A stretch of DNA of 64,000 nucleotides from positions 150,360 through 214,359 of the forward strand of contig CAZGEO010000001.1 of NCBI GenBank assembly GCA_964525295.1, given 5' to 3'. The notes beneath the pieces were generated by a model, which saw only the letters and a list, made by a program, of their open reading frames with translations, was not told the origin of the DNA and ran no database searches. The stretch comes from an uncultured Candidatus Saccharibacteria bacterium. GTDB lineage: Bacteria; Patescibacteriota; Dojkabacteria; GCA-002793355. Made by a program: the position numbers and the translations under genes. Positions 3,496 to 49,845 of the stretch are shown in pieces. Numbering within the stretch: position 1 is the first letter of the stretch; the number at the start of each line of letters is the position of its first letter.

Positions 3496-3596
3496 ATATT
3501 CTTACGCTTTGAGTCCACGTCGTTGATATTGCTTTCACCCACGCACACACAAGCATGTGACTCTAGCTTGAGAATAGATATTCAAAAAATCTATGA

Positions 3597-4346: not shown

Positions 4347-4352
4347 AATTCG

Positions 4353-4952
4353 TTATTGAGCTTTTTGCATTCCTGCACAAGCGATTGCTGATTGATCTGA
4401 ACCAACACAGTAACAATCTTTGTTCTTTGAAGCATCATTTCTTTCGACATTACCACCACGTGGGTTCTCGGTTACAGCACATACGGTTGCTCGCAATGCT
4501 GCACCATCAGTAGTTCGGCGAATGTAGTAATAGCGAATTTCGTTATAGTTATTCTCTTTTGAGAATGGTCCCCATGAGAATTCACCTTCAAAATATTCTG
4601 CAAGACCACCTTTACCTCGAACATTAATTAACGAAGAAGTGTCTGAGGTAAATGCTGTATTACAAGCTTTAACATTAGCCAAATCGACAGTTGTCTTTGT
4701 TGAATCAACGCCATCACCGACTGGATCACCAGCACCGAATTTACCAGAGTTATAAATACACCCTGGATATGTTTGGAAGTCAGCATAATATGCTGTTAAA
4801 GCAGTTTGAATCTGATTAACAATGTTTCTTCGCTGAGTGTCTCGACCTTGGCGTAGTGCGAATGTTAAGCCGGCGTATGCGCCAACTGACAAAAAGGCAA
4901 TAATTGCCATAACTACCATAAGCTCGACGAGGGTAAAACCTTTAACTTTCAT
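4353..4952 (-). CDS. pilA: Type IV major pilin (PilA-like).
   Basis: MKVKG|FTLVELMVVMAIIAFL is a canonical prepilin signal with G at -1, F at +1 and E at +5. Length 199 aa. C-terminal Cys pairs (CYCVG...CAG) suggest a disulfide-bonded loop. Confidence 0.8.
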   Translation of the reverse strand: MKVKGFTLVELMVVMAIIAFLSVGAYAGLTFALRQGRDTQRRNIVNQIQTALTAYYADFQTYPGCIYNSGKFGAGDPVGDGVDSTKTTVDLANVKACNTAFTSDTSSLINVRGKGGLAEYFEGEFSWGPFSKENNYNEIRYYYIRRTTDGAALRATVCAVTENPRGGNVERNDASKNKDCYCVGSDQSAIACAGMQKAQ

Positions 4953-5020
4953 TATTGAGCAGATCAGTTTATATACCAGAAAGATACCTCAATCGCATAA
5001 TTGTGTCAATGACGTTTCAA

Positions 5021-7785: not shown

Positions 7786-7796
7786 AGTTATTAAAA

Positions 7797-27895: not shown

Positions 27896-28990
27896 ATGAA
27901 ATTCGTAATAATGTGCGGAGGTTCGGGCTCAAAACTATGGCCAGTTAGCCGAGATCTAGCACCAAAACAATTCTTGCCAATTGTTGGAAAAAAAACAATG
28001 TTCCAACTAAACGTTGAGGCCCTACTTGAACGTTATTCAGCACACGATATCTATGTTTCAACTTCTGATGAGCTACAACATTTTGTTGAAGAACAAGCAC
28101 CAGAAATCCCCAAAGAAAATTACATTATTGAACCAAAACTCAACAAGGATACCGGTCCGGCATCTTGCTACGCAATGGCAAAGGTAGCAGCAAAGCATCC
28201 CGATGATGTCGTTTATTTCTACGTTCAAAGCCCAATTATTCGTACTCCCTCCGAAAAATACCTCGATATGATTGAAGGCATGGAACAATTAGTGCTCAAG
28301 CACAACAAATTGGTTACCGGCACACAAATTCCAAAATATACGGAAACTGGAAGCGATTTAATGCAATTAGGCGCACAAGTAGAGGCGATTAATGGCCTTT
28401 CGGTTTACGAAATTGAAAAATTCTTCGATGTCGTCAAAGATCGCTGGACCAAAGACGAAGTTGTCGAAGTTTCAGAGAAACACCGCGTTGGTACACACAC
28501 CAATCACTACACCTGGAGACCTGAGCCTTTCTTCGAAGCAGTAAAAAAATACCGACCAGATTGGTACAAAGTAACCCAGAAACTTCTTGATGCATTTGGC
28601 AAACCAAACGAACAAGAACTTATTAACAAGATTTATTCAGAATACGAACCAGGGCGAGCAGAGTTGTTAACTCGTGAGTTAATGAACAACAATCAAGTAA
28701 TTGCCGTTGTGGTACCGTATCGCTGGGCTCACATAACAACCTGGGACGATGTTTACCGATACTATCTTGAAGAAAATATTGAAACACATCAAACAGAAGT
28801 CATTGAAATCCAAAAAGACGGCAACCTCGTGCTTTCATCTAGCAAAAAACTAGTTGCTCTGGTAGGCATCGAAAACATGGTTATTATCGAAACCGATGAC
28901 GCACTTCTAATTTGCCCGAGAGATCAAGCTAACAAGGTAAAAGAGGTGAATGATATTTTGAAGACGAGAGGGTACAAGGAATTGCTTTAG
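27896..28990 (+). CDS. Mannose-1-phosphate guanylyltransferase-like nucleotidyltransferase.
   Basis: MKFVIMCGGSGSKLWPVSRDLAPKQFLPIVG matches the GGxGTRLWPLSR...PKQF signature of ManC/CpsB-type sugar-1-P nucleotidyltransferases. Confidence 0.75.
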   Translation: MKFVIMCGGSGSKLWPVSRDLAPKQFLPIVGKKTMFQLNVEALLERYSAHDIYVSTSDELQHFVEEQAPEIPKENYIIEPKLNKDTGPASCYAMAKVAAKHPDDVVYFYVQSPIIRTPSEKYLDMIEGMEQLVLKHNKLVTGTQIPKYTETGSDLMQLGAQVEAINGLSVYEIEKFFDVVKDRWTKDEVVEVSEKHRVGTHTNHYTWRPEPFFEAVKKYRPDWYKVTQKLLDAFGKPNEQELINKIYSEYEPGRAELLTRELMNNNQVIAVVVPYRWAHITTWDDVYRYYLEENIETHQTEVIEIQKDGNLVLSSSKKLVALVGIENMVIIETDDALLICPRDQANKVKEVNDILKTRGYKELL

Positions 28991-29214: not shown

Positions 29215-30477
29215 ATGAAAATTACAAAAATAAAAGCCTATGAAATTCTTGCCTCAGGCGGTTACCCAACTGTCGAAGCAGAGGTCACTCTAGAAAACGG
29301 ATTTGTTGGTGTTGCCTCAGTTCCTTACGGTGCATCGGCGGGTTCACATGAAGCCACAGTACTAAATGATGGTGATGAAACTCGCTACGGTGGAAAAGGT
29401 GTTCTTAAGGCGATCGCAAACATTGAAAATGAAATTGCACCAGCAGTTATCGGAATGGATGCAACTGATCAAAGAGCACTCGACCAAAAAATGATTGAAC
29501 TTGATGGAACCCCCAATAAGGCACGACTCGGTGGCAATGCAATTCTTGCAGTTTCACTTGCTGCTGCGCGGGCAGTTGCGAATGCGACGGGAAAGCAACT
29601 ATATCGTCATATTATCGACACTTACAATACACAAGTTGATCTAGCCAAGCTACCAAACCCTATGGTTGTCGTTATTGAAGGTGGAAAGCACGCAGATGAA
29701 ACGACCGATCTCCAAGAATTCTGTATTACCGCAATTGGAGAGGGTAGTGTTAAAGAAAATGTTCGCAAAGCGATGGAAGCATATCATGCGCTCCGAGGAA
29801 TCTTGAAAGAGAATAAGCTCTCAACTAACGTTGGTAACGAAGGAGCATTCGCACCAAACGGTATTCCTACAAATGAATCACCCTTCCAATACATTGTAGA
29901 TGCAATTACGAAAGCTGGTTACGTTCCAGGTAAAGATCTTGGAATTTCAATCGACGCAGCAGCAAGTGAATTCTATGAAGACGGCAAATACGTACTCGCA
30001 GTAGAGAATCGCTCGTTGACTGCAGCTGAACTTATCGCTTATTACGAGACTTGGTTGCAAAAGTACCCGATTGTAACCTACGAAGATATGCTTCAAGAAG
30101 ATGATTGGGCAAACTGGGTCGAAATGAAAAAAGTAACTGACAAGTATAATGTTCCTCATATTGGCGATGATCTTACCGTTACAAACGTAGAACGACTACA
30201 AAAAGCAATCGATCTAAATGCGATTTCGGCGATTCTTATCAAGCTCAACCAAATTGGAACTCTTACTGAAACTGTCGATTGTTGCATGCTTGCTAACAAA
30301 CACGGATTAATGACAACGACCTCACACCGAGGTGGTGGAGAAACAAACGACACCGCAATGATCGATGTCGCAGTTGCAGTTGGCAGTAAGTTCGTTAAGG
30401 TTGGACCAACCCGCGGCGAACGAGTCAGCAAGTACAACAGATTGATGGAAATTGAAAGAGACGTTATCGGTAATTAA
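29215..30477 (+). CDS. eno: Enolase (phosphopyruvate hydratase).
   Basis: ILASGGYPTVEAEV. GASAGSHEA. SHRGGGETNDT and KVGPTRGERVSKYNRLMEIE signatures. Length 420 aa. Confidence 0.95.
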   Translation: MKITKIKAYEILASGGYPTVEAEVTLENGFVGVASVPYGASAGSHEATVLNDGDETRYGGKGVLKAIANIENEIAPAVIGMDATDQRALDQKMIELDGTPNKARLGGNAILAVSLAAARAVANATGKQLYRHIIDTYNTQVDLAKLPNPMVVVIEGGKHADETTDLQEFCITAIGEGSVKENVRKAMEAYHALRGILKENKLSTNVGNEGAFAPNGIPTNESPFQYIVDAITKAGYVPGKDLGISIDAAASEFYEDGKYVLAVENRSLTAAELIAYYETWLQKYPIVTYEDMLQEDDWANWVEMKKVTDKYNVPHIGDDLTVTNVERLQKAIDLNAISAILIKLNQIGTLTETVDCCMLANKHGLMTTTSHRGGGETNDTAMIDVAVAVGSKFVKVGPTRGERVSKYNRLMEIERDVIGN

Positions 30478-31268: not shown

Positions 31269-31278
31269 ACTGAACAAT

Positions 31279-31350
31279 CCAGAGGTAGCTCAGTGGTAGA
31301 GCCGGAGACTGTAAATCTCTTGGTCGGGGGTTCAAATCCCTCCCTCTGGA
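31279..31350 (+). tRNA. tRNA-Tyr (anticodon GUA), 72 nt, class I with a short 5-nt variable loop. C1:G72, A73, no encoded CCA.
   Basis: Manual fold. Acceptor CCAGAGG/CCTCTGG. U8. D-stem GCTC/GAGC with GG in the loop. Anticodon stem GGAGA/TCTCT. Loop CU-GUA-AA with U33 and A37. T-arm GGGGG-TTCAAAT-CCCTC. A T-run follows. Confidence 0.8.
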
Positions 31351-31363
31351 TTTTTTTATTACC

Positions 31364-32236
31364 CTACAATAACTGATGCGCTCGCACAATTGCTCGCGCT
31401 GTATCAATATCATCAAATTCTGGCGGCTCGCGACGTAAACTTTGCGCTAGCATAGAGATAGTTTCAGTGTATTCACGCATAAATTCCTGCTTCCCCATTT
31501 CATAAAGAACATAATCAAGGTGATTAAGTTTTCGTAATTCTGTAATTGTTTCCTCATCAAAATCCGTTATTTGAGGCCTACCCGAAAAAGTCATTTCTCG
31601 TTTGTTATCAACACGTGGAGTTAACCCAGTCTTAAACGCAAGCAGTAAACACGATTGTTCAAAGTATTCTTGAATGCCGACAAAATCTAATGTTTTGAGG
31701 TGCTTTACGGCATTCCCTAAAAGTTCTGATTCTGGCATTTTTCCCGCATGCTTACTCAAAATGTGATGAATTGCCGAAGAAGATTCCAATTCTTCAGAAG
31801 TTGTATTCTGTAAGATATCAATATCGATACCAACAAATCGAGCTTGCGCGTTCCAATAATGGGTTCTAACACTCTCAACTTGAAGCATCTTTTTCAAATC
31901 ACCATTTTCTATTGACTTATACTCTCTGTTGGCGACTGTATGAACCAAATATGGGTCGACGAGAGCATGGTGATGTTGCGAGATAACCCTCTCAACTGGG
32001 TCGCGAAGAAAGGTTAATGTAAAAGCATCTTGTGGCAAAAATCTGCGCAGACTATACCCGAAATGTCCACGATAAAATCGATACTTATTCCAGGGCATGG
32101 GAGAATGTTTAACAATATCATACCAAAAATGACCGGGAAAAATTTCTTCTTCGGTAAAGAATTTTGAAAAGTAACCAGTAAAGGAAGTTCCCGCAGTTTT
32201 GGGAATGTGTAAGAAATAGTACGTGCGGTCTTTCAT
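31364..32236 (-). CDS. Sulfotransferase-family protein.
   Basis: 5'-PSB-like motif FLHIPKTAGTSF (PKTGGTS). 3'-PB-like FLRDPVERVISQ. Length 290 aa. Confidence 0.6.
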   Translation of the reverse strand: MKDRTYYFLHIPKTAGTSFTGYFSKFFTEEEIFPGHFWYDIVKHSPMPWNKYRFYRGHFGYSLRRFLPQDAFTLTFLRDPVERVISQHHHALVDPYLVHTVANREYKSIENGDLKKMLQVESVRTHYWNAQARFVGIDIDILQNTTSEELESSSAIHHILSKHAGKMPESELLGNAVKHLKTLDFVGIQEYFEQSCLLLAFKTGLTPRVDNKREMTFSGRPQITDFDEETITELRKLNHLDYVLYEMGKQEFMREYTETISMLAQSLRREPPEFDDIDTARAIVRAHQLL

Positions 32237-32377
32237 TGCGACATTGTACGAACTGAAATGACGTTGGTCAAATTCGCGGATTTACTTTCACCCACGTCTT
32301 CACTAACATGGTACTCTCGCTCAAAAAATTAACATCCCTGGCATTACGCTTTGCAATGAATACCTGCGAATAATTGA

Positions 32378-33361
32378 GTGACGGTAACATTACTTACTGT
32401 ATTTATGTATAATAAGGTAATGAGAAATCCTTTAACAATAATCAAAGAAAAAATTCAGAAATTAGATTCAATTGAGAAAAAGGTCGATAAACTTCTCGCA
32501 AATAGATCCGAGAACAGAAGAGGTCCAGAACAACCTGCAGAGATACTCCAACAAGAATTACAAAAAAAACAAAAACTTTTGAAATCTTCACTCTGCAAAG
32601 AACTCGATTTTCACCAACCATGGTATGCAAAATGGTGCGCTGAAATTAATCAGAAACCTGCATTCCATCGTAAACAATGGGAATTCGCATATATTTTGCA
32701 GGCTTTACATGAACGAGGCATGCTTCAAGAAGGGAAAAAAGGATTAGGTTTTGCTGTTGGCTCCGAACAATTGCCAGCATTATTTGCGAAATACAAAATG
32801 ACCATTTTAGCGACAGATTTAGATCCAGAGCAAGGTGCAGAAAAAGGTTGGACCACCGGAGATCAACTCTGTTACGGGGTTGAGTCATTTGCCAAACATG
32901 GCATTGCGTCACTCGAGACATTGCAAAAATACGTAACCTACCGTGCTGTTGATATGAATAACATTCCTGATGATCTAAAAGATTTTGATTTCACCTGGTC
33001 AGCCTGTGCATTCGAGCACCTTGGTTCAATCGAAAATGGCTTAAAATTTGTTGAGAATCAGATGAAAACATTGAAACCTGGTGGCTATGCAATTCATTCC
33101 TCCGAATACAACATCAGTTCAAATGACGATACCGTTGAAAATGAAAATCTCGTTTTGTTTAGACAACGTGATTATCAAGAACTTGCAGAAAGACTACGTA
33201 AACAAGGTCACTTTGTAGAAGAATTAGATTTTTCTCTTGGTTGGTTACCAACAGATTATTTTGTTGATGTGCCCCCATATTTGCAAGACAAACATCTTAG
33301 GTTACAGATCGATCGATTCGTAACTAGCTCATTTTGCTTAATTATTCGAAAGAAACTGTAG
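32378..33361 (+). CDS. Putative SAM-dependent methyltransferase with an N-terminal coiled-coil. May modify a glycan.
   Basis: N-terminal heptad-like KEKIQKLDSIEKKVDKLL...QQELQKKQKLLK. Then a motif-I-like KGLGFAVGSE and acidic ILATDLD. The family call is tentative. Confidence 0.4.
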   Translation: MTVTLLTVFMYNKVMRNPLTIIKEKIQKLDSIEKKVDKLLANRSENRRGPEQPAEILQQELQKKQKLLKSSLCKELDFHQPWYAKWCAEINQKPAFHRKQWEFAYILQALHERGMLQEGKKGLGFAVGSEQLPALFAKYKMTILATDLDPEQGAEKGWTTGDQLCYGVESFAKHGIASLETLQKYVTYRAVDMNNIPDDLKDFDFTWSACAFEHLGSIENGLKFVENQMKTLKPGGYAIHSSEYNISSNDDTVENENLVLFRQRDYQELAERLRKQGHFVEELDFSLGWLPTDYFVDVPPYLQDKHLRLQIDRFVTSSFCLIIRKKL

Positions 33362-33368
33362 TACAATA

Positions 33369-34139
33369 GTGAATATGACCAGTAACTATTTCGACTTGCT
33401 AAGAGAATTTTTCGTTACTGATTTCAAATTACGTTATAAACACTCATATTTGGGATTCTTGTGGGTTGTCATGAAACCACTTTCACAGTACGCAATTCTT
33501 TACATCATTTGGACCTCATTGTTCGGAAGAACTGCTGACTTTGCGTCATATCTTTTAATCGGAATTTTATCTCTTTCTTATTTTTCAGAAGGAGTTGTTT
33601 TTGGTATGCAGGCACTTCAAAACAAGGCGCATATTATATTAAAAGTTCGTTTCCCTCGAGAAGTGGTGGTTTTAAGTTCAGTTATGATCGCAACCGTTAA
33701 TTATCTCATCAATTTAGGAATTTACTTTCTATTCAGGATCGTGTCACAACAACCACTTTTCGCCGGTAATTGGCTATTATTTGTGCTCGGATTCATTCTT
33801 CTTACGCTTTTCTTGTTTGGGCTTGCCTTCTTTACTAGCATAATCAGCGTTAAATATCACGATATCCGTCATTTAATCGAGTTGTTATTACAACTCATGT
33901 TCTGGGCTACGCCAATTTTTTATAGTTTGTCGCAACTTCCTAAAAAACTAGCAGCCATTTTAAGCAATTTTAATCCATTAGTTTCAATATTAACCCTGCT
34001 TCGAGGAGGCTTGTTGGCTGACGCAGATCCGGTAAATTGGCAAACAATTGCATTTATGACCTTGTTTATCCTTTTTATCACAATTACTGGCTATTGGTCG
34101 TTCAAGAAACGTTTACCTAAAATCGCAGAATTCTTTTAA
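33369..34139 (+). CDS. ABC-2 type polysaccharide/teichoic-acid exporter permease (Wzm/TagG-like).
   Basis: 256 aa with six TM helices. N-terminal FVTDFKLRYKHSYLGFLWVVMKP is typical of Wzm/KpsM/TagG. Directly followed by the ATPase gene. Confidence 0.8.
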   Translation: MNMTSNYFDLLREFFVTDFKLRYKHSYLGFLWVVMKPLSQYAILYIIWTSLFGRTADFASYLLIGILSLSYFSEGVVFGMQALQNKAHIILKVRFPREVVVLSSVMIATVNYLINLGIYFLFRIVSQQPLFAGNWLLFVLGFILLTLFLFGLAFFTSIISVKYHDIRHLIELLLQLMFWATPIFYSLSQLPKKLAAILSNFNPLVSILTLLRGGLLADADPVNWQTIAFMTLFILFITITGYWSFKKRLPKIAEFF

Positions 34140-34140
34140 C

Positions 34141-34881
34141 ATGGACGCAATAACAGTAAACTCGCTGACGAAATCATTCACAATTCCTCATGAGCGAAAA
34201 AACTCACTCGTAGAAATGCTGACCAAATCATTTCAAAAAGTTCCCGTCGATAAACTTGAAGTACTTAAAAACATTTCATTTACCGTTAAAAAGGGTGAAA
34301 CATTAGGAATAATTGGCACGAATGGAGCAGGTAAATCAACTTTACTAAAACTCATCGCAGGTATTTACACACCAGATGCTGGGACCATAGCTCTTGGAGG
34401 TAAATTGGTACCATTTCTTGAACTTGGTGTAGGATTCAACCCAGAACTAACTGGAAGAGAAAACGTGTTTTTAAACGGCATTATTCTTGGAATGTCGCGT
34501 TCTTTTCTAAAACAGAAATTCGACGAGATTGTTTCATTTTCTGAGCTTGAGAGATTCATCGATTTACCACTGAAAAACTATTCTTCTGGTATGCAAGTTC
34601 GACTCGCGTTTTCAATAGCATTCATGGCAGAAGCAGATATTTATTTACTTGATGAAGTTTTTTCTGTTGGAGATATGGCATTTCAAGAGAAGAGCAAAAC
34701 AATTTTTAAGCATCTTAAAGAAGAAGGTAAAACACTTGTATTAGTTTCACATTCACTCCCAACGATGAGTGAAAATGCCGATCGTTTGTTGCTTTTACAC
34801 CAAGGTAAGGTGCAACTATTTGATTCAGTTGCCGCTGGAATCGAAAAATACGAACAACTGGTTAAACAAAACAGCAATTAA
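34141..34881 (+). CDS. ABC transporter ATP-binding protein (Wzt/TagH-like), with no extra C-terminal domain.
   Basis: Walker A GTNGAGKST. ABC signature LSSGMQVRLAFSIA. Walker B YLLDEVFSVGD. H-loop VSHS. Start is 2 nt after the permease stop. Confidence 0.85.
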   Translation: MDAITVNSLTKSFTIPHERKNSLVEMLTKSFQKVPVDKLEVLKNISFTVKKGETLGIIGTNGAGKSTLLKLIAGIYTPDAGTIALGGKLVPFLELGVGFNPELTGRENVFLNGIILGMSRSFLKQKFDEIVSFSELERFIDLPLKNYSSGMQVRLAFSIAFMAEADIYLLDEVFSVGDMAFQEKSKTIFKHLKEEGKTLVLVSHSLPTMSENADRLLLLHQGKVQLFDSVAAGIEKYEQLVKQNSN

Positions 34882-34888
34882 CAAAGAC

Positions 34889-36208
34889 TTACAATTTCGC
34901 AAGACCTGCTTTTATCTTTTCATACATAACTTGTTCTGTGTATTTCTTCGACTGCTCAGTACCTTTGCGGATAAGGTCAACGCGCAATTGAGGATCTTTC
35001 AAAATCTTCAATAATTTTTGTGAAATTTCACCAACAGAGTAGGGGTTATCAATTTTTAGAACGGCCTCTCCGGCTACTTCTGCCAAAGCTCCACGTACAC
35101 TCGAAACAGCAGGGCACCCCAATGCAAAAGCTTCTAAGACAGGTAAGCCAAATCCTTCATATAGTGTCGGATTTACTAATGCAATCGCATGTTTTAGCAA
35201 AGTATATTTATCGTGCTCATTCGCATACCCCGTAAAGATAATTCTTTTCTGAATATGTTTTGGAGCTTTCTCTACCTCTTTGAAAATATCCTTAAATGCA
35301 TAAGTTTTATTACCAATGATAACTAGATTTGCGGTTGTCTTGTCGGCAATTGCAATAAATGCCTGAATTAATCGGTGTACATTTTTGCGTCTTTCAACAG
35401 AAGATATAAAAATAATAAATTCTTTACCTACAAGATCATTTTGAATGAGTACCGGGGAATCTGTTTCATAGAGTGGACGTTCATAATCAAATGCTGAAAT
35501 TGCAGCACCAATATTGTGAAGAAAGGTTGTTGGTTCAACTTCTTTGATTTTTGCTTCAGAGTCATCTGAAATTGTAAAAACTAAGTCAGAATTCCTTGTG
35601 ACATAATCAATTTGCTTCGCAAGTTTTGTCAACCAATTATTTTCGGGTGATTCTTCTGCAATTTCGAATGGAATCAAATCGTAAATAATCTGAATAGTTT
35701 TAACACCTTTAAGTTTCGGTACAACGACAGGAAAACTAAAGAAGACCGCATCAGGCTTAACTGTTTTGATAATTTTTTGTAAAGCGAATTTTCTAACAAT
35801 CTTTGGCAAAATTCCGATAAGGCGATAAAAATACGGCAAGTTAACTGCTGCATCAAAAAATGGCAGCAATGGAATACCAACAGATTTATCTTTATCAATT
35901 TTGGTTACAGGCGATTTTTGAAAGAAAAAGGCTTTCAAAAATCGCAACACTACGCGCCAGTTAGATTGCTTTGGGTCAACTTTGCGCGTCAATTCACCAC
36001 CGTTAACTAAATATTGGCGAATGTAAGTATTGTGAACTCTTTCAGCCATGCGTTCTGAGCCAACAGTTAGAGAAATTTTTGGATAACTTGTGAGAAGAAC
36101 AACTTCGTGCCCTTGATCGGCAAATGCTCTAACGACATGTTTCGTTACAAATTGCACACCACGATAGTTCAAATCTTCAAGTTCCGGCGCTACTACGAGT
36201 ATCTTCAT
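34889..36208 (-). CDS. Glycosyltransferase family 1 (GT4-type, retaining).
   Basis: C-terminal EGFGLPVLEAFALGCPAVSS carries the E-x7-E/GT1 signature. N-terminal KILVVAPE with Gly-rich loop. Length 439 aa. Confidence 0.85.
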   Translation of the reverse strand: MKILVVAPELEDLNYRGVQFVTKHVVRAFADQGHEVVLLTSYPKISLTVGSERMAERVHNTYIRQYLVNGGELTRKVDPKQSNWRVVLRFLKAFFFQKSPVTKIDKDKSVGIPLLPFFDAAVNLPYFYRLIGILPKIVRKFALQKIIKTVKPDAVFFSFPVVVPKLKGVKTIQIIYDLIPFEIAEESPENNWLTKLAKQIDYVTRNSDLVFTISDDSEAKIKEVEPTTFLHNIGAAISAFDYERPLYETDSPVLIQNDLVGKEFIIFISSVERRKNVHRLIQAFIAIADKTTANLVIIGNKTYAFKDIFKEVEKAPKHIQKRIIFTGYANEHDKYTLLKHAIALVNPTLYEGFGLPVLEAFALGCPAVSSVRGALAEVAGEAVLKIDNPYSVGEISQKLLKILKDPQLRVDLIRKGTEQSKKYTEQVMYEKIKAGLAKL

Positions 36209-36293: not shown

Positions 36294-36545
36294 ATGAACA
36301 AAATCAAGAATGTTTTACAGAAGATGGGTGTCACATACTTTTCGGCACGAGAAAATTTCAAAAAGCGATATCCTCTCATAAATACCATTTTAATATTGTT
36401 CGCAATGGTTATGCTTTGGCGCGGAATCTGGGGGGTACTAGATCTCTACCTATTTCCTGAGAATCAACTACTCAGCTATGTTGCCAGCATTGGTATTGCA
36501 CTCTTCATCATTCTTTTCGATGATTTCAAACTAACAGAAGTCTAA
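36294..36545 (+). CDS. Small hypothetical membrane protein of 83 aa.
   Basis: Two hydrophobic helices. Short ORF. Confidence 0.3.
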   Translation: MNKIKNVLQKMGVTYFSARENFKKRYPLINTILILFAMVMLWRGIWGVLDLYLFPENQLLSYVASIGIALFIILFDDFKLTEV

Positions 36546-36593: not shown

Positions 36594-36896
36594 ATGAACA
36601 CTAATTGGCGAACCAATGAATTAACCCAGCTTGCTGAAGCAATTGCTGTTTGTTCGACAATAGATGAAGTAGAGTCTTTTCTACGTGATTTACTCACCGA
36701 AGCAGAAATTAAAGAATTTGCAGGTAGATTAGCGGTTGCTAAAGCGTTGGCATCAGGAATCAGCCAAAGAACGGCTTCAAAGCAAACCGGTGTAAGTATC
36801 GCAACGGTCACCAGAGTCAATAAGTGGTTAACCAATGGCGCATCCGGGTACAAAAACGTTATCAACAAGATTTTCCATCATCATCATAAGGCGTAG
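36594..36896 (+). CDS. TrpR-like YerC/YecD-family DNA-binding protein ending in a His4 run (..FHHHHKA).
   Basis: RDLLTEAEIKEFAGRLAVAKAL...SQRTASKQTGVSIATVTRVNKWL matches the YerC/YecD Trp-repressor-like fold. Codons CAT x4 at 36876-36887. Confidence 0.65.
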   Translation: MNTNWRTNELTQLAEAIAVCSTIDEVESFLRDLLTEAEIKEFAGRLAVAKALASGISQRTASKQTGVSIATVTRVNKWLTNGASGYKNVINKIFHHHHKA

Positions 36897-36987
36897 TTTT
36901 TCGCTTTGTGATTTCATATTTTCCAAAAAAATAAAGGTAAGTAAGAAGAGACAAGGCGAAAAGCCTGATTTTTTTATAAATAAATTA

Positions 36988-36993
36988 TATAAT
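36988..36993 (+). promoter_or_regulatory. -10 element (TATAAT) about 10 nt upstream of the hisS ATG, so a leaderless or very short leader.
   Basis: TTATATAATACACGAATT-ATG. No Shine-Dalgarno between the box and the start. Confidence 0.4.
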
Positions 36994-37002
36994 ACACGAA
37001 TT

Positions 37003-38322
37003 ATGAATCAAAACTTCCTTTCAACGCAGCCTTATAAAGGTGCTCGAGATTTCTATCCAGAAGATATGCGTTTACGTAATTACATATTTAATACCTGGAA
37101 AAAAGTCTGTACCCGCTATGGATTCGAAGAATATGATTTCCCGATTCTTGAAAATTTCGAAGTTTTCGCCTCAAAATCTGGGGAAGAAATTGTGAATACG
37201 CAACTTTTCTCATTTGAAGATAGAGGTGGCAGAAAAGTTGCGATTCGCCCAGAACTTACGCCAAGTACCGTTCGCATGATTGCAGCTCGCATCAATGATT
37301 TACCAAAACCAATCAAATGGTTCATGATTGGTAACAACTGGCGTTTTGAAAAACCTCAAAAAGGGCGTGGCCGCGAATTTTATCAACTGGAGATGAACAT
37401 TTTTGGTGTTCCTGAAGTTGAAGCAGATTTTGAAATCTTTTCAGCAATTGTAGATATCATGTCGGCCTTTGGCGCGAATGAAACGATGTACAAAGTAAAG
37501 TACAGCGATCGCAGAATTATTTCGGCATTATTGCGTGATTACCTAAAGCTCGACGATGAAAAACAGGTTGCCGCCCGCAGAATTATGGATAAGCGCCAAA
37601 AAGTTTCGAAAGAAGATTTTGTCACAATGCTTGCAGAAGTTAACATTTCAGCAGGTGATGCAGAAAAAATCGATGCCTTTATGCTCAGTTCCTTTGCTGA
37701 TTTAAAGGGTGTCATTCCAGCAGAAATTCTTGAAAATAATGAGGGCTACAAGAATGTATTTGCTTTAGAAAAACTCTTGCAAACCTACGATATTCAAAAA
37801 TATTGCGAATTTGATCCGGGTATTATCAGAGGTTTCGATTATAGCGATGGATTAGTGTACGAAGTATTTGATAAGAATCCAGAAAACAGGCGTTCAATGT
37901 TCGGAGGAGAACGTTTTGACAGATTGATCAATGTTTATGGTAAATATGACATGGCTGCAACTGGCTTCGCCATGGGGGATATTACTTTGCAAGAATTCCT
38001 CAAAGGTTGGAATCTATTACCTGAATTTCCTAGTACAACCACGGTTCTTGTTACTCGTTTCGGTCAAGATGAAAAGTTTGAAGCATACAGCATAAAGACC
38101 GCCAAGAAACTGAGAGATGCTGGTATTACCGTTGACTTATACACCACACCTGATAAGCTCGAAAAACAATTGAAATATGCTGACAAGAAGGGAATACCTT
38201 ACGTCATCATTGCGGGTGAAGAAGAAATTACGAAAAGTACTGTCGTATTGAAGAATATGCGCAAAAAGGATCAAACAATAGTTCAACTTACTGACTTATG
38301 TGATGTAGTAAATGGCACCTAA
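37003..38322 (+). CDS. hisS: Histidyl-tRNA synthetase, class IIa.
   Basis: Motif 1/2 region FRFEKPQKGRGREFYQ matches RYERPQKGRYRQFHQ. Motif 3 region. C-terminal anticodon-binding domain (VLVTRFGQDE...YVIIAGEEE). Start taken at ATG 37003; the track ORF from 36835 is an upstream extension. Confidence 0.9.
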   Translation: MNQNFLSTQPYKGARDFYPEDMRLRNYIFNTWKKVCTRYGFEEYDFPILENFEVFASKSGEEIVNTQLFSFEDRGGRKVAIRPELTPSTVRMIAARINDLPKPIKWFMIGNNWRFEKPQKGRGREFYQLEMNIFGVPEVEADFEIFSAIVDIMSAFGANETMYKVKYSDRRIISALLRDYLKLDDEKQVAARRIMDKRQKVSKEDFVTMLAEVNISAGDAEKIDAFMLSSFADLKGVIPAEILENNEGYKNVFALEKLLQTYDIQKYCEFDPGIIRGFDYSDGLVYEVFDKNPENRRSMFGGERFDRLINVYGKYDMAATGFAMGDITLQEFLKGWNLLPEFPSTTTVLVTRFGQDEKFEAYSIKTAKKLRDAGITVDLYTTPDKLEKQLKYADKKGIPYVIIAGEEEITKSTVVLKNMRKKDQTIVQLTDLCDVVNGT

Positions 38323-38896
38323 TTATCCCGCACCAAAAGAATCACTAGCACAAAAAACGTCGCAACAAATTATTGGTGATTTGATTGATAAACGTGAAAA
38401 GAGTAGATATTACCAAGAACTCGTTCAAACTCCGAAGAAGGCCGGTAATTTGCTCAAAGAGTGTTTACGAGAATATAAAAACCCACTAAATAATTTCATT
38501 GCGTATCTTGCTACTTCTGGTATTTCTCAATACGATGATGATTCACCAATAAAATCTGCCCTCAAAATCTTTTGTAGTGAAGAAATTAATGCTCTCAAGG
38601 CGTACTCATTTAACAATATTCGTCAAGTAATAATCAAAATGATGGATTCATATTCATATGTTGATGCTGCTATGCCATTCTATGAGCAGATGGCAGAATA
38701 CATTGATGCAGAATCACTTGACAAAATTCGTGCTGAAATCATTGCTTCGCCAAATAGAGTGCGTGGGAAGGATATTCGATTGAATTTTAAACAACAAACA
38801 ATTTTGAATAGCATCATGGTTGCATTTTTAAAAGCACTTAGCATTAAAAATCCTGATAGTTCTTATAAATATACATATCACGATCTAGTTAAATGA
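38312..38896 (+). CDS. Hypothetical protein, paralog A of a tandem pair.
   Basis: 194 aa. Shares N-terminal (MAPN..AP), middle (EKSRYYQELVQTPKKAGNLL, NPLNNFIAYL) and C-terminal (AFLKALSIKNPDSSYKYTYHDL) blocks with the downstream gene. Confidence 0.5.
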   Translation: MAPNYPAPKESLAQKTSQQIIGDLIDKREKSRYYQELVQTPKKAGNLLKECLREYKNPLNNFIAYLATSGISQYDDDSPIKSALKIFCSEEINALKAYSFNNIRQVIIKMMDSYSYVDAAMPFYEQMAEYIDAESLDKIRAEIIASPNRVRGKDIRLNFKQQTILNSIMVAFLKALSIKNPDSSYKYTYHDLVK

Positions 38897-39389
38897 CACC
38901 AAACATAAAAAATTTAAATGCACCCTCAGCCCCAGCACAAGAAAAAAAAGAGCCTGTACTCAGCCAATCCAGGTTTTCAGCGACATTGTCATACAAAGAG
39001 AAGAAAGTAAGTATTTTAAACAATTGCAAGATTCGCCCGAATTAGCCGGGAATATATTACTTTCTCTCGTTATCGATAAATTTCGCCCGCTCAATAACTT
39101 CTACCTCTATTTTCTACCTGAGAACCAAATCGGACCAATCGAATCACCGATTTATAATTCCGCATTAGTGCAAGATATTCGCAGAGTTGCAAAACAAGAA
39201 TTGCAAAAGCTGCAAAAAATTCCAAATCTAAGAGAAAGGTTTACTCAATTTAACGATCTAAAACTTACTAGTATTACTGCAGAAGACAACATTTTTGCTG
39301 GTTTATACATGCAAGCATTTCTCAAAACATTAGCAATAAAGAATGATGATGGCAGTTACAAGTATACTTTCAGAGAATTGCGTGCTTAA
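38893..39389 (+). pseudogene. Paralog B of the tandem pair, interrupted by a frameshift at an A8 homopolymer (38942-38949). Candidate phase-variable gene, or a homopolymer sequencing error.
   Basis: ATG 38893 (MTPNIKNLNAPSAPAQEKK) is in frame +1 relative to the downstream ORF 39024-39389. The downstream frame is open back to 38889 and encodes ..IQVFSDIVIQREESKYFKQLQDSPELAGNILL, homologous to paralog A. The frames switch at the A8 tract. Confidence 0.5.
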
Positions 39390-40819
39390 CGAACGATAAC
39401 AATCGCCGTCATTGAATCAGTTGAAATACTTGTCGGCAAGTCTATTGAGTAATCCAAACCGTATTCCTTTGCTAGAAACTTTGCCGTACTCTCATATTTC
39501 TTTCCTCCGACTGCATATACTTTTCCTGAAAGTTGCGTTGCTTCCGGCATCGATAGCGTTCCTGCGTCAACGATTTTTACGAAATAATGGCGTTTTGTCA
39601 TTTTCGCGAGCAATTCCTGCTTTCTGGCACTATCCGTTACGTGATACACCGCAATCTTTTTGTCGGTAGTAACCAAAGCTGGCTCCAAGAAGTATTCTTT
39701 AATGTAGCCTTGAATTTCTCCCCAATTTCCCATACCAAGTCTCGGTCCAAGTAAATATGGATTCGCATTTACAACATCAATCAAGCGATAAGCTGAACCA
39801 CCGGCATATAGATCAAGAACAGAAGAATGGGTTGTTGGACGGCCTTTCTCCTTCAAAATAAGTAGTGCAGTTTGAATTTCATCAATACCAAATTTTGTAG
39901 TTTTTATATTCTTTGAAACAACTCCCAAAAGTTCCATAATTTTTTTCGCATTCAACAATGTTTCTGTTTTCGATACTTTATCAACAACACTTTGAATAAC
40001 TTTCTGTTGACGTATTGATCGAGCAAAATCTCCTTCTTCACTCGTTGGAATCATATCTTTTCTTAGCCGACTAAACTTCAAAGCCTGTTGCCCTGAAAAA
40101 TGATTCCAACCTTTTGTGAAATTTACTCGTTCATAACCAAAATTTGCAGTCGGGTAGAGCCCCGAGAGATCATAATCTAAATATACATCCACACCGCCGA
40201 TTACATCAATCACATCAGTAAATCCTTTTAAATCAATCATTGCAGCATAATGGATTTCTTGGCCAGATAACTGCGTAATAAGTTTTTGTAATGCCTCTAA
40301 CCCTGAATTCTTTTTCTTATTCTCGGCATACGCGTAGGTTGCATTAATTCTTCCGACCACGTCACTATCAGGATAAGTTACTGCTAAATCGCGCGGAAAC
40401 GAAATCATCGCAAGTCGATTAGTCTCAACATCATAAGAAGCCAAAATTATAGTATCTGTATTCAGTTCAATTTGTCCTTCTTCTCGAGTATCTATGCCTA
40501 CGAGGAGAACATTTGTTTTGCCATTCTCATCTTTTTTAATCTCTGGACGTGCTGAAAATACTCCTTCTTCTTGGTTTGTAACTCCAAGTACCGAGCTAGA
40601 ACTAAAAAAAGGCAATGCGAATCGAATCACCCCAAACACAAATGCAAGTGATAATACAACGGCAGTGACTTTACCTATTTGAAACCTTTTTTTCGGCAGT
40701 GCAGTCATTGATTGTTTGCTGATAACTGGCTGAACATTAGATTGCTTTATTGGTTGCGCAGCAGGTGCTTTGTTTCCTTCGAAAATATGGTCATCTAGTG
40801 ACACTCGCATCGTTGACAT
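39386..40819 (-). CDS. LCP-family (LytR-CpsA-Psr) cell-wall glycopolymer ligase.
   Basis: N-terminal TM (VTAVVLSLAFVFGVI). LCP core VLLVGIDTRE...NTDTIILASYD...AMISFPRDLAV. C-terminal LytR_C-like region. Start could instead be 40906 (track). MSTMRVSL at 40819 is preferred because it avoids overlap with the divergent gene. Confidence 0.75.
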   Translation of the reverse strand: MSTMRVSLDDHIFEGNKAPAAQPIKQSNVQPVISKQSMTALPKKRFQIGKVTAVVLSLAFVFGVIRFALPFFSSSSVLGVTNQEEGVFSARPEIKKDENGKTNVLLVGIDTREEGQIELNTDTIILASYDVETNRLAMISFPRDLAVTYPDSDVVGRINATYAYAENKKKNSGLEALQKLITQLSGQEIHYAAMIDLKGFTDVIDVIGGVDVYLDYDLSGLYPTANFGYERVNFTKGWNHFSGQQALKFSRLRKDMIPTSEEGDFARSIRQQKVIQSVVDKVSKTETLLNAKKIMELLGVVSKNIKTTKFGIDEIQTALLILKEKGRPTTHSSVLDLYAGGSAYRLIDVVNANPYLLGPRLGMGNWGEIQGYIKEYFLEPALVTTDKKIAVYHVTDSARKQELLAKMTKRHYFVKIVDAGTLSMPEATQLSGKVYAVGGKKYESTAKFLAKEYGLDYSIDLPTSISTDSMTAIVIVR

Positions 40820-48288: not shown

Positions 48289-49845
48289 TTGCCGTTTTTT
48301 CGCTATACTATGACTATGTTCAACGTAAATACATTTGGCTCGAAAATATTAGTGGTTTTTTTTGCATTTTTTGCAGGACTCGCAGTTTATCTTCCATTTT
48401 TGGAAGCTTTTGCACTTACTCCTGCAATCGCATTTGTGCATCGTTTCAGTATAACGCTACAAATTGGTAGTCTTGAGAAAACACTGCAACCTATTCTCTT
48501 TGTGATTCCAATTTTATTCATAAAGGGGGCGCTTGAATACAATAAACGTTACGGTATTACCTCCTTGATTAAAAATAAAATTGTATGGTTAGTTCTCGCT
48601 TTATTACTTATTGACCTAGTTTCAGTCGCGACCTCAAGCCTCAAATCAACATCTTTCGTTGCTTTTGCCGTTCATGCAATTAACATTATGGTATTTCTGA
48701 CCAGTAGCATTTGGCTAAGAATTGTCATTGATATGTTACAAAAGCCAAATCTTCAAAAGGCCGCCTTACGCATTACGAAAACTTTTATCATTACACTCGC
48801 AGTTTTCACCATTACGAATGCTGTGGTTTCGACTTCTCAGTTTGCGGATTGTTCATTTTCAGATGGCGCATGTCACCTATGGAAATCAATCGACACAAAT
48901 TTCCCCAACCGCTTACTCGAAGTAGGGCACCAAAAATTTAGTTACGAATCACCAATAATAGCTCGAGCACCAGGCTTTTTTGGTGATGTCAATTTTAACG
49001 GGATGTTCTCACTATTCATCTTAGTTTCAACAGCAGCACTCTATTTTTTATCTGAGGTATTGAAAACGAAAAAAGGTTATTCACCCATAAAAGAGCAACG
49101 AATTTTGATTGCAATAATTGCTGCAAGTACCATTTCTTTCTTACTTACATTTTCAAGAAGTGCTTTGCTCGGCGCAGGCATTTTAACAATAGTCTTATTC
49201 TTTGCATTTATCTTACCCCTGTTAAAAAATATTGAATTACCAAAGCTTTTTTGGAGCAACTTACTAAAAATTTCTGCAGTAGCAACAACTGCGTTGGTCT
49301 TAACATTCCTTATTGGTTTCGCGATCCCACTACAAGGTGGCGAGAGTAGAACGTCAATTTCAGGAAAAGTTCTGACATACATTGGCGAGGCAATTTCAAT
49401 CAAAGATTCTTCTGCGAACGGTCACCTTATTCTATTTCAAGATGCATTGAAACTTGGCTCACTTAAACCGATTTTCGGCCACGGTATTGGAACATACTCA
49501 CCAATGTACCAAAAATTCATTAATCCTGCCGATGCGAATTCAAACCCACACTCAACTTACGCGATGCTTTACGCTGAACAAGGAATTGTTGGATTGGTTG
49601 TTTACTTTGTTGTAATCATTTTGTTTTGGATAATTGCAATAAATACGATCCGTAAAACAATTCGCGAAATTGCTATCGCATTCAAAAATGAGAAAAAACT
49701 AAGTAAGGAATTTTATATGACATCTCTCGTTCGCATTCTTCTTGCACTAATTTGCTTTGGAATTCCATTTTACTCAATCGCAACTACAACTTATTATGGC
49801 TTCTTTTTGCCTATGACGTGGTGGTGGGGAATGATTGAATCATAA
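48289..49845 (+). CDS. Polytopic membrane protein of 518 aa. Possibly a Wzy_C/O-antigen-ligase-like glycan polymerase or oligosaccharyltransferase.
   Basis: At least 10 TM helices. A loop segment and ...FSRSALLGAGILTIVLFFAF resemble Wzy_C (PF04932) topology. The family call is tentative. Confidence 0.4.
   Translation: MPFFRYTMTMFNVNTFGSKILVVFFAFFAGLAVYLPFLEAFALTPAIAFVHRFSITLQIGSLEKTLQPILFVIPILFIKGALEYNKRYGITSLIKNKIVWLVLALLLIDLVSVATSSLKSTSFVAFAVHAINIMVFLTSSIWLRIVIDMLQKPNLQKAALRITKTFIITLAVFTITNAVVSTSQFADCSFSDGACHLWKSIDTNFPNRLLEVGHQKFSYESPIIARAPGFFGDVNFNGMFSLFILVSTAALYFLSEVLKTKKGYSPIKEQRILIAIIAASTISFLLTFSRSALLGAGILTIVLFFAFILPLLKNIELPKLFWSNLLKISAVATTALVLTFLIGFAIPLQGGESRTSISGKVLTYIGEAISIKDSSANGHLILFQDALKLGSLKPIFGHGIGTYSPMYQKFINPADANSNPHSTYAMLYAEQGIVGLVVYFVVIILFWIIAINTIRKTIREIAIAFKNEKKLSKEFYMTSLVRILLALICFGIPFYSIATTTYYGFFLPMTWWWGMIES

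Follow-up and report, generated by a model that had tools for sequence, protein, structure and literature searches.

A putative ABC-transporter-dependent surface-glycan locus with a heparan-sulfate-type sulfotransferase in a Dojkabacteria-like bacterium

The five genes that follow tRNA-Tyr in the 64-kb stretch of DNA we analyzed (hereafter the window) are best explained as a locus for ABC-transporter-dependent export of a surface glycan, native to a Dojkabacteria-like bacterium (Patescibacteria/CPR) and variable in content across the lineage; we give this reading a probability of about two in three. A lipid-linked glycan would be assembled on the cytoplasmic face of the membrane, with a GT4 glycosyltransferase contributing at least one step and the priming transferase and any further glycosyltransferases being encoded elsewhere. 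Before export, the glycan would be decorated by a soluble PAPS-dependent sulfotransferase, whose predicted fold resembles that of heparan sulfate 2-O- and 6-O-sulfotransferases, and by a soluble class I methyltransferase, whose methyl group would be a decoration, possibly a terminal one. The Wzm/Wzt pair would translocate the finished product without dependence on a cap, and an LCP enzyme would then probably link the exported polymer to peptidoglycan. The heparan-sulfate-type sulfotransferase is the sole unusual feature of the locus.

Table 1. Features of the glycan locus and its neighborhood (positions in the window).
Feature	Position	Strand	Evidence
ManC/GMP, mannose-1-phosphate guanylyltransferase-like	27896..28990	+	NTP_transferase + ManC_GMP_beta-helix; NCBIfam GMP_PMI E=2e-43
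tRNA-Tyr (GTA)	31278..31351	+	ARAGORN; Rfam 71 bits
Sulfotransferase ST1, 290 aa	31364..32236	-	Pfam Sulfotransfer_2 E=7.8e-9
Divergent intergenic region between the sulfotransferase gene and the methyltransferase-Wzm-Wzt operon	32237..32419	.	Sequence reading
Class I SAM-methyltransferase, 313 aa	32420..33361	+	Pfam Methyltransf_11 (weak)
Wzm, ABC-2 permease	33369..34139	+	Pfam ABC2_membrane E=2.8e-8
Wzt, ABC ATPase, NBD only, 246 aa	34141..34881	+	Pfam ABC_tran E=1.9e-24
GT4 (GT-B) glycosyltransferase, 439 aa	34889..36208	-	Glycos_transf_1 E=2.2e-28; Glyco_trans_1_4 E=9e-22
LCP (LytR-CpsA-Psr) transferase	39386..40819 (alternative limit 40906)	-	LytR_cpsA_psr E=3.4e-29; NCBIfam LCP/TagU

All five open reading frames are present in the ORF list of the window at exactly the positions given in a preliminary description, directly beside the tRNA gene found by ARAGORN, and Pfam searches support the domain assigned to each of them. 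The stop codon of the sulfotransferase gene lies 12 nt from the tRNA. The spacing is operon-like: the methyltransferase gene and wzm are 7 nt apart, a single nucleotide separates the wzm stop from the wzt start, and the GT4 gene converges on wzt with 7 nt between them. The sulfotransferase gene diverges from the exporter operon. Sigma-70-like hexamers occur on both strands of the divergent intergenic region (32271-32243 on the minus and 32384-32413 on the plus strand); however, their number is no higher than in shuffled sequences, and thus they provide no evidence of function. Both motifs quoted for the sulfotransferase, HIPKTAGTSF and FLRDPVERVISQ, are in its ORF. The label GT1 agrees with the Pfam family Glycos_transf_1, but in CAZy terms the enzyme is a GT4. 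The methyltransferase probably starts at ATG 32420 and not at GTG 32378, as the gene caller and all homologs agree. Several transmembrane segments are predicted in Wzm and none in the sulfotransferase, the methyltransferase, GT4 and Wzt, and these four proteins are predicted from sequence to be cytoplasmic. The domains, and the recurrence of the cassette in related loci, agree with the general reading of cytoplasmic glycan tailoring coupled to a Wzm/Wzt-type ABC-2 exporter.

ST1 scores 36.5 bits against Sulfotransfer_2 (cut-off 22), and residues H10, I11, P12, K13, T14, G16, G57, H58, L77, R78, P80 and S86 are invariant in 30 homologs. The top PDB folds for its AF2 model (pLDDT 91.5) are heparan sulfate 6-O-sulfotransferase (5t03; TMq 0.60-0.62) and 2-O-sulfotransferase (4ndz/3f5f), and a weak sequence match to 5t03 spans both PAPS motifs. 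With these enzymes, its best structural matches at a TMq of about 0.6, ST1 shares the 5'-PSB (PKTxGT), the 3'-PB (RDPxxR..S) and an invariant His between the two motifs, and it is predicted to share the sulfation of a sugar chain using PAPS. However, identity is 17-18%, and whereas the heparan sulfate sulfotransferases are Golgi type II membrane proteins, ST1 is soluble and cytoplasmic by prediction, is coupled to an ABC exporter, and has no visible PAPS pathway. Motifs and model together suggest that ST1 is a PAPS-dependent, cytoplasmic carbohydrate O-sulfotransferase. Bacterial systems that sulfate glycans include NodH and LpsS of Sinorhizobium and the cyanobacterial Xss system for synechan. 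A sulfotransferase, either ST1 or a second family (ST2), clusters with Wzm-Wzt in the window and in seven further loci, and this recurrence strengthens the functional link between the tailoring set and the exporter; none was seen in locus L092 or in the visible parts of two short related contigs (L093 and L094). We infer that the exported glycan is sulfated and methylated.

The NCBIfam models that rank highest are galactan Wzm/RfbD followed by KpsM for Wzm, and Wzt/RfbE and TagH for Wzt. The scores fall far below the equivalog cut-offs, which suggests that the exporter is a distant member of the cap-independent class. Among solved structures, Wzm matches M. tuberculosis Wzm (9qfx; 1.6e-12), Aquifex aeolicus Wzm and TarG by sequence, and Wzt matches the A. 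aeolicus Wzt NBD (1e-55), TarH (5e-48), TagH and M. tuberculosis RfbE. Identity to the Wzm of related loci is 56-66% (L002, L003, L087, L090, L091 and L093), 59% in L094 and 43% in L089, and the nearest named homologs of Wzt are from Candidatus Dojkabacteria and Patescibacteria. ABC_tran is the sole Pfam domain of Wzt, and the C-terminal carbohydrate-binding domain (Wzt_C) is absent; its close homologs all have 241-261 aa, and some 55%-identical homologs of about 400 aa carry PF14524. ABC-dependent export falls into classes that do or do not depend on this carbohydrate-binding domain (CBD), and capped systems require Wzt_C (PMC9445017). The absence of a cap-binding domain therefore argues for export in the cap-independent class, with methylation as a decoration and not as an export licence or ruler. 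A Wzt without a CBD, next to and translationally coupled with an ABC-2 permease, is also found in cap-independent systems (Klebsiella O2a Wzm/Wzt, mycobacterial galactan Wzm-Wzt and TarGH/TagGH), and the Gram-positive and mycobacterial ones likewise have an LCP gene nearby. The window differs from these systems in its CPR host with a genome of about 0.66 Mb, in having one glycosyltransferase and no priming enzyme in the locus, and in tailoring by a sulfotransferase and an uncurated methyltransferase family.

The methyltransferase matches Methyltransf_11 over residues 176-239 only (E=4.6e-5; score 24.4 bits, cut-off 21.2) and has no NCBIfam match. Its motif I is atypical (FAVGSE), and it has more than 1000 homologs with 51-67% identity. 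In the AF2 model (pLDDT 88.7) helices at residues 4-29 and 40-49 precede a Rossmann-type core, and Foldseek matches the model with a probability of 1.0 to class I methyltransferases such as NNMT, PNMT and SDMT at a TM of about 0.45. Judged by profile and model, the protein is a class I methyltransferase whose family is uncurated. Members of this family occur in polysaccharide clusters of three unrelated contexts: beside an MsbA-like ABC transporter and two GT4 enzymes in Bacteroidota (L004-L006), in a Bac_transf cluster (L095), and in Wzm/Wzt cassettes.

Several neighbors may belong to the same pathway. The LCP and Wzy_C domains that the preliminary description had seen at 39386-40819 and 48289-49845 were both recovered by Pfam, the former also by NCBIfam. 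The LCP protein has one N-terminal transmembrane segment and is a possible downstream partner of the glycan locus; its gene is syntenic in L002, L003 and L089 and does not adjoin the cassette in L090, L091 and L096. The ManC/GMP gene, which scores below the cut-off of GMP_PMI and is kept beside enolase in L003 and L089, possibly supplies a sugar donor. The GT4 enzyme has orthologs with 60-61% identity in L002 and L087, 44-47% in L090 and L091, and 35% in L089.

How the methylation should be read was one of two points on which the preliminary description did not hold. It had pointed to WbdD-like coiled-coil 'ruler' enzymes that regulate chain length by terminal methylation. In a full system of this kind, the methyltransferase would cap the glycan at its non-reducing end, determine its length and license its export. 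The methyltransferase gene indeed lies immediately upstream of Wzm-Wzt in the window and in five relatives, the N-terminal helix is confined to exporter-linked members of the family, and the nearby ManC and GT4 genes recall the E. coli O9a polymannose cluster. However, what was called a coiled coil is a single predicted helix of about 26 residues or 3.5 heptads and not an extended coiled coil, and Pfam finds no kinase domain in the 313-aa protein. WbdD structures exist in the PDB; the methyltransferase has no sequence match among PDB chains at E<=1, and its fold matches are generic. These features, together with the missing CBD, separate the locus from the E. coli O9a WbdD/Wzt-CBD and A. aeolicus methyl-capped O-antigen systems, which also combine a methyltransferase with Wzm/Wzt near GT4 and ManC-type genes. 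Furthermore, among relatives of the window the methyltransferase is dispensable (L003 has the exporter without any) or replaced (L089 has a different family, Methyltransf_21, RfbT-like), and we consider a WbdD-like system quite improbable. An alternative explanation is that, in place of a long polymer linked to polyprenol, the exporter delivers a small glycolipid or oligosaccharide that is sulfated and/or methylated. The Nod-factor system follows this logic, with the trio of the window represented by the NodH sulfotransferase, the NodS methyltransferase and the NodIJ ABC-2 exporter, which act on a cytoplasmically made glycan. The block has GT4 as its sole glycosyltransferase, and the 64-kb window showed no priming phosphoglycosyl transferase, so that a long polymer remains a supposition; in addition, L003 is reduced to the sulfotransferase and Wzm/Wzt, and NodI models match Wzt (E of about 1e-24 to 1e-26). 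On the other hand, Wzt is closer to Wzt/RfbE/TagH models (174-178 bits) than to NodI (84-90 bits), the best solved relatives of the exporter (A. aeolicus WzmWzt, TarGH and M. tuberculosis Wzm-Wzt) are polymer exporters, a NodC-like GT2 is absent, and related cassettes carry an extra GT2, hexose 2,3-dehydratase or UDP-GlcNAc 2-epimerase, enzymes commonly involved in making polymers and linkage units. A small product therefore appears rather unlikely.

The connection of the sulfotransferase to the exporter, and of the block to its surroundings, can also be questioned. ST1 might modify another acceptor (a small molecule, lipid or protein) or be inactive without PAPS. This would agree with its divergent transcription and with its identity between relatives of only 34-41%, compared with 62-71% for Wzm/Wzt in L002 and L003 (in L089, 59% for Wzt and 43% for Wzm). 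Genes for PAPS synthesis (ATP sulfurylase, APS kinase) and for PAP phosphatase were found neither in the window nor in the fetched loci of relatives. There is also a precedent in Aeromonas salmonicida, where the O-antigen cluster wb(salmo) is of the ABC-2 (Wzm/Wzt) type and has an ORF with a sulfotransferase domain beside wzt, yet the O-antigen contains no sulfate (PMC4483657). Adjacency is thus no proof of sulfation. However, the A. salmonicida Wzt has 438 aa (PMC4483657) compared with 246 aa in the window, and in the Dojkabacteria clade the association of sulfotransferase and exporter is repeated across many loci and in two chromosomal contexts, with a sulfotransferase from either of two families beside Wzm/Wzt. 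Given that the residues for PAPS binding and a His do not vary among homologs, and that the nearest folds belong to enzymes of polysaccharide chains, a role apart from the exporter seems distinctly unlikely. Still less probable, in our view extremely improbable, is that the block arrived horizontally as an accessory island and integrated at tRNA-Tyr, as its position beside the tRNA had suggested. The gene content does differ between relatives, and L090, L091 and L096 carry a related cassette in a different chromosomal context. However, the window ORFs of at least 110 aa contain no domain of an integrase, recombinase or transposase, in agreement with the earlier remark that no integrase was visible, and the 3' end of the tRNA has no att-like repeat anywhere in the window. 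The composition is native: the block has a GC content of 0.36-0.39 (window mean 0.387), its GC3 and synonymous-codon distance lie within 1 sd, and its tetranucleotide distance ranks 42 among 60 windows, so that the proposed comparison with the flanks gave no deviation. The slot is itself conserved, in the order enolase, tRNA-Tyr, the glycan genes, TrpR-like, HisRS and LCP. tRNA-Tyr and Wzm/Wzt lie together beside enolase in four related metagenomic contigs (L002, L003, L087 and L089) whose sulfotransferases have diverged to 34-41% identity, compared with 73% for HisRS and 82% for GyrB, and three of the four extend through TrpR-like, HisRS and LCP. The tRNA-Tyr gene is a conserved neighbor and not an integration site.

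Synteny thus argues against an island, although the tailoring genes in the slot do differ between related genomes. The methyltransferase-Wzm-Wzt operon and its convergent GT4 gene are arranged and spaced alike in the window and in five of the seven further loci with a sulfotransferase (L002, L087, L090, L091 and L096). Across the relatives, however, tailoring genes are exchanged: the sulfotransferases fall into two families, as do the methyltransferases, and GT4 is present or missing, whereas Wzm/Wzt keep 59-71% identity. Terminal methylation by RfbT (WbeT) defines the serotype of Vibrio cholerae O1. This decoration is optional: it changes a surface epitope of an ABC-exported glycan, and export does not need it. 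The Methyltransf_21 protein in the methyltransferase slot of L089 has a weak match to the Pfam family V_cholerae_RfbT, whereas the methyltransferase of the window belongs to another, uncharacterized family. Retention of the exporter with swapping of the tailoring genes resembles a serotype-type glycan locus.

The five ORFs between 31.3 and 36.2 kb are exactly those listed in the preliminary description: a sulfotransferase (ST, of the family here called ST1), a methyltransferase (MT), the exporter proteins Wzm and Wzt, and a glycosyltransferase (GT4, the only glycosyltransferase gene in the block). Pfam upholds all five domain assignments (Sulfotransfer_2, a weak Methyltransf_11, ABC2_membrane, ABC_tran and Glycos_transf_1, respectively), and the interpretation built on them is supported in part: the domain calls stand, while a WbdD-like chain-length ruler and cap and an accessory island at the tRNA do not. 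The ST is oriented divergently from the exporter genes. MT and Wzm are separated by 7 nt, and the Wzt start codon lies 1 nt past the Wzm stop; judging from these gaps, MT, Wzm and Wzt would be co-transcribed. The tRNA was the sole match in an Rfam scan. A promoter and terminator scan gave site counts not above those in shuffled sequence and was for this reason left unused as evidence.

Positions of the genes and gene clusters discussed (window or related locus)
Feature	Sequence	Position	Strand	Remark
Type IV pilus cluster	window	1607-9656		
ManC-like gene	window	27896-28990		
Enolase	window	29215-30477		
tRNA-Tyr(GTA)	window	31278-31351	+	12 nt to ST stop codon
ST	window	31364-32236	-	ORF
MT	window	32378/32420-33361	+	ORF
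Wzm	window	33369-34139	+	ORF
Wzt	window	34141-34881	+	ORF
GT4	window	34889-36208	-	ORF
Two-TM protein	window	36294-36545		83 aa
TrpR/YerC-like	window	36594-36896		
HisRS	window	36835-38322		as called, 495 aa
Hypothetical gene	window	38312-38896		
Hypothetical gene	window	39024-39389		
LCP enzyme	window	39386-40819		
Wzy_C membrane protein	window	48289-49845		
Glycyl-tRNA synthetase	window	50481-53399		972 aa
ST2	L002	10872-11585	-	
ST2	L087	9243-9998	+	
ST2	L090	4789-5514	+	
ST2	L091	4730-5482	+	
ST2	L096	4227-4928	+	
fn3-containing protein	L003	4713-8456	+	1247 aa
Rearranged block	L089	7346-12538		
264-277-aa protein	L002	5205-6005	-	
264-277-aa protein	L003	3725-4558	-	
264-277-aa protein	L089	12692-13486	+	
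264-277-aa protein	L093	5918-6715	+	

On their sequences, Wzm and Wzt are assigned to the ABC-transporter-dependent glycan exporters of the Wzm/Wzt or TagGH type, as a distant member. The Pfam match of Wzm to ABC2_membrane has an E value of 2.8e-8, its top NCBIfam match is Wzm/RfbD (74.7 bits, far below the equivalog cut-off), and its closest PDB sequences are Mtb Wzm, A. aeolicus Wzm and TarG. Wzt finds its top NCBIfam matches in Wzt/RfbE (177.9 bits) and TagH (173.8 bits), both far below the equivalog cut-offs, and is closest in the PDB to the A. aeolicus Wzt NBD (1e-55), followed by TarH, TagH and M. tuberculosis RfbE. The nearest named homologues of Wzt are annotated as Candidatus Dojkabacteria or Patescibacteria group, and the taxonomic placement rests on these. 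A weak Pfam match to GT4-conflict also led us to consider a defence system, which we rejected: PADLOC gave generic P-loop matches on Wzt only.

The exporter also bears on the proposal that MT acts like WbdD, the E. coli O9a terminator, in setting chain length and capping the polymer for export. Capped O-antigens require the carbohydrate-binding domain (CBD) of Wzt for export, and CBD-less transporters make up the cap-independent class (PMC9445017). The Wzt of the window comprises 246 aa and is an NBD only, with ABC_tran as its single Pfam domain and without the Wzt_C CBD (PF14524); its close homologues are all 241-261 aa long, and Wzt_C does occur in some homologues that are 55% identical and about 400 aa in length. 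MT has no kinase domain, matches no PDB chain by sequence at E<=1 (phmmer), and in Foldseek finds generic class I methyltransferases only (NNMT/PNMT/SDMT, probability 1.0, TM about 0.45). The N-terminal coiled coil, envisaged as a ruler, is in the AF2 model (pLDDT 88.7) a single helix at residues 4-29 that spans about 3.5 heptads and has hydrophobic residues at the a/d positions, followed by a disordered linker, a helix at 40-49 and a class I Rossmann methyltransferase core. With all three defining features missing (CBD, kinase-methyltransferase terminator and a long coiled coil keeping the catalytic domain at a distance from the membrane), the ruler and cap reading fails, and we regard a system of this kind as quite improbable. 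MT may still decorate the glycan with a methyl group, terminal or internal, on which export does not depend.

The most likely start codon of MT is the ATG at 32420, which yields 313 aa and agrees with the gene call and with all homologues. Its Methyltransf_11 match is marginal and partial, and no NCBIfam model exists for it. The residues G114, D133 and D178 show little or no variation, and sequence and model together predict a class I SAM-dependent methyltransferase with an atypical motif I (FAVGSE). The family is large (>1000 matches), and its catalytic part of about 255 residues retains 55-61% identity even between the CPR genome of the window and Bacteroidota (Chitinophagaceae, Sphingobacteriales). 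The N-terminal helix is confined to family members upstream of Wzm/Wzt and is not found in the Bacteroidota members, which in three loci lie in a conserved cluster of MsbA-like ABC, GT4, GT4 and MT; another member is found within a Bac_transf/GT2/GT4 cluster. These three contexts, with Wzm/Wzt, the MsbA-like ABC transporter or Bac_transf, indicate that the MT family is consistently associated with glycans.

The sulfotransferase scores 36.5 bits against PF03567 (Sulfotransfer_2; Pfam cut-off 22) and covers 238 of the 252 profile positions. In a search of 5.8 billion proteins, no more than about ten match it at E<1e-30; by sequence, it is placed as a rare subfamily within the broad Sulfotransfer_2/Gal-3-O-sulfotransferase neighbourhood. 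In an alignment of 30 homologues, the 5'-phosphosulfate loop (H10, I11, P12, K13, T14 and G16), the pair G57-H58 and the 3'-phosphate motif (L77, R78, P80 and S86) are invariant. Its sole sequence similarity in the PDB is to heparan sulfate 6-O-sulfotransferase, exactly over the 5'-phosphosulfate and 3'-phosphate motifs, and the closest folds to its AF2 model (pLDDT 91.5) are HS6ST (E 9e-7, TMq 0.60-0.62) and then HS2ST. These closest folds, the heparan sulfate 6-O- and 2-O-sulfotransferases, act on polysaccharide chains. No transmembrane segment was found in ST; taken together with the motifs and the predicted fold, this makes it a credible cytoplasmic glycan O-sulfotransferase, predicted to be PAPS-dependent. 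A literature search on sulfotransferases or envelope glycans of Patescibacteria/Dojkabacteria returned nothing relevant.

The position of the block beside a tRNA had suggested an accessory island. However, the block does not stand out from the rest of the window in GC content (0.36-0.39, in a window of about 38-39% throughout), GC3 or synonymous-codon distance, nor in tetranucleotide distance, in which it ranks 42nd among 60 windows; the comparison of composition with the flanks that had been suggested as a check thus reveals no deviation. No integrase, recombinase or transposase domain occurs in window ORFs of at least 110 aa (64 kb), and the 25-nt 3' end of the tRNA matches itself alone with up to three mismatches allowed. 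In all four syntenic relatives found, admittedly a small sample, tRNA-Tyr and Wzm/Wzt lie beside enolase, and in the three whose contigs reach on, the order is enolase, tRNA-Tyr, glycan genes, TrpR-like gene, HisRS and LCP (a LytR-CpsA-Psr enzyme). Presence/absence polymorphism of the whole block was not seen in these four; the tailoring genes alone differ, and ST is only 34-41% identical to the window, as against 73% for HisRS and 82% for GyrB. Native composition and conserved synteny are the very combination that the preliminary description had named as speaking against an island, and with the composition, integrase, repeat and presence/absence tests all against it, we give a tRNA-integrated island next to no probability.

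A scan of GTDB genomes with enolase was of no use for the presence/absence comparison, since the loci with the closest enolases (73-81% identical, from other CPR MAGs) share no further neighbour with the window. Enolase is a poor relatedness marker here: the matched loci carry labels such as Dojkabacteria and Pacebacteria, and the enolases of the syntenic relatives are only 65-68% identical to that of the window. The enolase gene may have been transferred between CPR lineages, or rates of evolution may have been uneven.

The contents of the slot between enolase and the TrpR-like gene vary around the exporter. Identity to the window is 62-66% for Wzm in L002, L003 and L087 and 43% in L089; for Wzt it is 68-71% in L002 and L003 and 59% in L089. 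L002 contains ST1, a second sulfotransferase family (ST2), MT and GT4; L003 contains ST1 only, lacks MT, and has a putatively secreted fn3-containing protein at the position of GT4; in L087, ST2 replaces ST1 and is joined by MT and GT4; and in L089 the block is inverted in part and comprises a GT4 of 35% identity, a Methyltransf_21 (RfbT-like) methyltransferase (MT21) and ST1. In three further loci (L090, L091 and L096), a related cassette in which ST2, a hexose 2,3-dehydratase, GT2, MT, Wzm, Wzt and GT4 follow one another lies in an unrelated chromosomal context with no tRNA. A Wzm-profile scan of JGI metagenomes recovered two short loci only (L093 and L094). Wzm/Wzt are accompanied there either by a UDP-GlcNAc 2-epimerase and two GT4s or by a fusion of MT21 and GT4, and the visible part contains no ST. 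ST is also absent from a glycosyltransferase-rich cluster in a Dojkabacteria locus that is more distant. A conserved exporter with exchanged tailoring genes is what a surface-glycan locus of the serotype type would show. Sulfation recurs most persistently, with a sulfotransferase among the tailoring enzymes in almost every case.

Several details of these loci are worth recording. The ST2 proteins (233-251 aa, motif HLAKTGGTTF, borderline Sulfotransfer_1/2 Pfam scores) accompany or replace ST1 beside Wzm/Wzt in related Dojkabacteria loci and are absent from the window. The fn3-containing protein of L003, encoded on a 668-kb contig, has a hydrophobic, signal-peptide-like N-terminus and one weak fn3 match, and may be a large surface protein. 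In L089 the tRNA-Tyr is found towards the TrpR-like gene, Wzt and Wzm stand in reversed order, and GT4, MT21 and ST are co-directional, which shows that rearrangement occurs inside the conserved slot. In the relatives, the glycan block is separated from the TrpR-like gene by a gene for a protein of 264-277 aa that has a hydrophobic N-terminal stretch, no Pfam match and 35-58% identity from one relative to another. The window lacks a homologue of this protein and has a two-TM protein with a Pfam 'Fuseless' match instead.

Elsewhere in the window, HisRS as called begins inside the TrpR/YerC-like gene; HisRS is 410-438 aa long in the relatives, and an internal Met at about 37003 would give 439 aa, so that the called start is probably too far upstream. 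Two hypothetical genes lie between HisRS and LCP, and their products have in common a nearly identical C-terminal motif of 24 residues (AFLKxLxIKNxDxSYKYTxxxL, 67% identity). Neither gene has a Pfam match, and neither has a homologue in L002 or L003, which are syntenic with the window. The type IV pilus cluster includes several N_methyl pilin-like genes, a prepilin peptidase (A24_N_bact), a PilC-like T2SSF protein and two T2SSE ATPases, and a Wzy_C (O-antigen ligase or O-OTase-like) membrane protein is encoded far from it. The alpha and beta subunits of glycyl-tRNA synthetase are fused in one protein (tRNA-synt_2e and tRNA_synt_2f).

Building on the observed domain identities, gene spacing, recurrence and synteny, we infer how the product of the block may be made. 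A lipid-linked glycan would be assembled on the cytoplasmic face by GT4, a soluble GT-B enzyme, together with enzymes encoded elsewhere; the soluble ST (using PAPS) and the soluble MT (using SAM) would decorate it; and cap-independent ABC export would deliver it to the outside. The ManC-like gene may supply GDP-mannose, and the LCP enzyme, syntenic in three relatives, may attach the glycan to peptidoglycan. Several observations weigh against this scheme. The block provides a single glycosyltransferase, and window ORFs of at least 110 aa include no polyprenyl-phosphate priming transferase (Glycos_transf_4/MraY-like or Bac_transf domain). Genes for the supply of PAPS (ATP sulfurylase and APS kinase, or uptake) are found neither among the window ORFs nor among the genes listed for the related loci that were retrieved, and ST is transcribed away from the exporter. 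Moreover, in Aeromonas salmonicida an ORF with a sulfotransferase domain adjoins wzt, yet the O-antigen carries no sulfate (PMC4483657). An alternative explanation is that the product is not a polymer but a small sulfated and/or methylated glycolipid or oligosaccharide following a Nod-factor-like logic, which we consider improbable; that ST is unrelated to the exporter, or inactive, appears less probable still.

A bolder reading of the proposed pathway is that these ultra-small Dojkabacteria (CPR) make an anionic glycopolymer of the wall or surface that is sulfated and resembles a GAG, with heparan-sulfate-type sulfotransferases coupled to a CBD-less Wzm/Wzt, and with two ST families and interchangeable methyltransferases giving rise to surface serotypes. 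We hold this to be speculative and on balance unlikely. If the genome of about 0.66 Mb lacked ATP sulfurylase and APS kinase, PAPS would have to come from a host or partner cell, and, were the GAG-like reading true, envelope sulfation would be a direct readout of an episymbiotic lifestyle.

With this locus, the well-known glycan pathway that depends on an ABC transporter gains a new, distant member from a phylum that has received little study. Its wider interest is limited to the recurrent heparan-sulfate-type sulfotransferases, the source of PAPS and the uncurated MT family, and it is otherwise an ordinary representative of the pathway. The analysis flags this large and highly conserved methyltransferase family in polysaccharide clusters, and raises a tractable genomic question in the origin of PAPS in a genome of about 0.66 Mb. 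It also makes the testable prediction that the exported glycan bears sulfate esters and O-methyl sugars. Experimental knowledge of the envelopes of CPR/Patescibacteria is scant; these bacteria depend on cell contact, and surface polymers therefore probably decide attachment and host range. In one Dojkabacteria clade, Wzm/Wzt occupies a fixed chromosomal position, and the tailoring enzymes are shuffled around this exporter.
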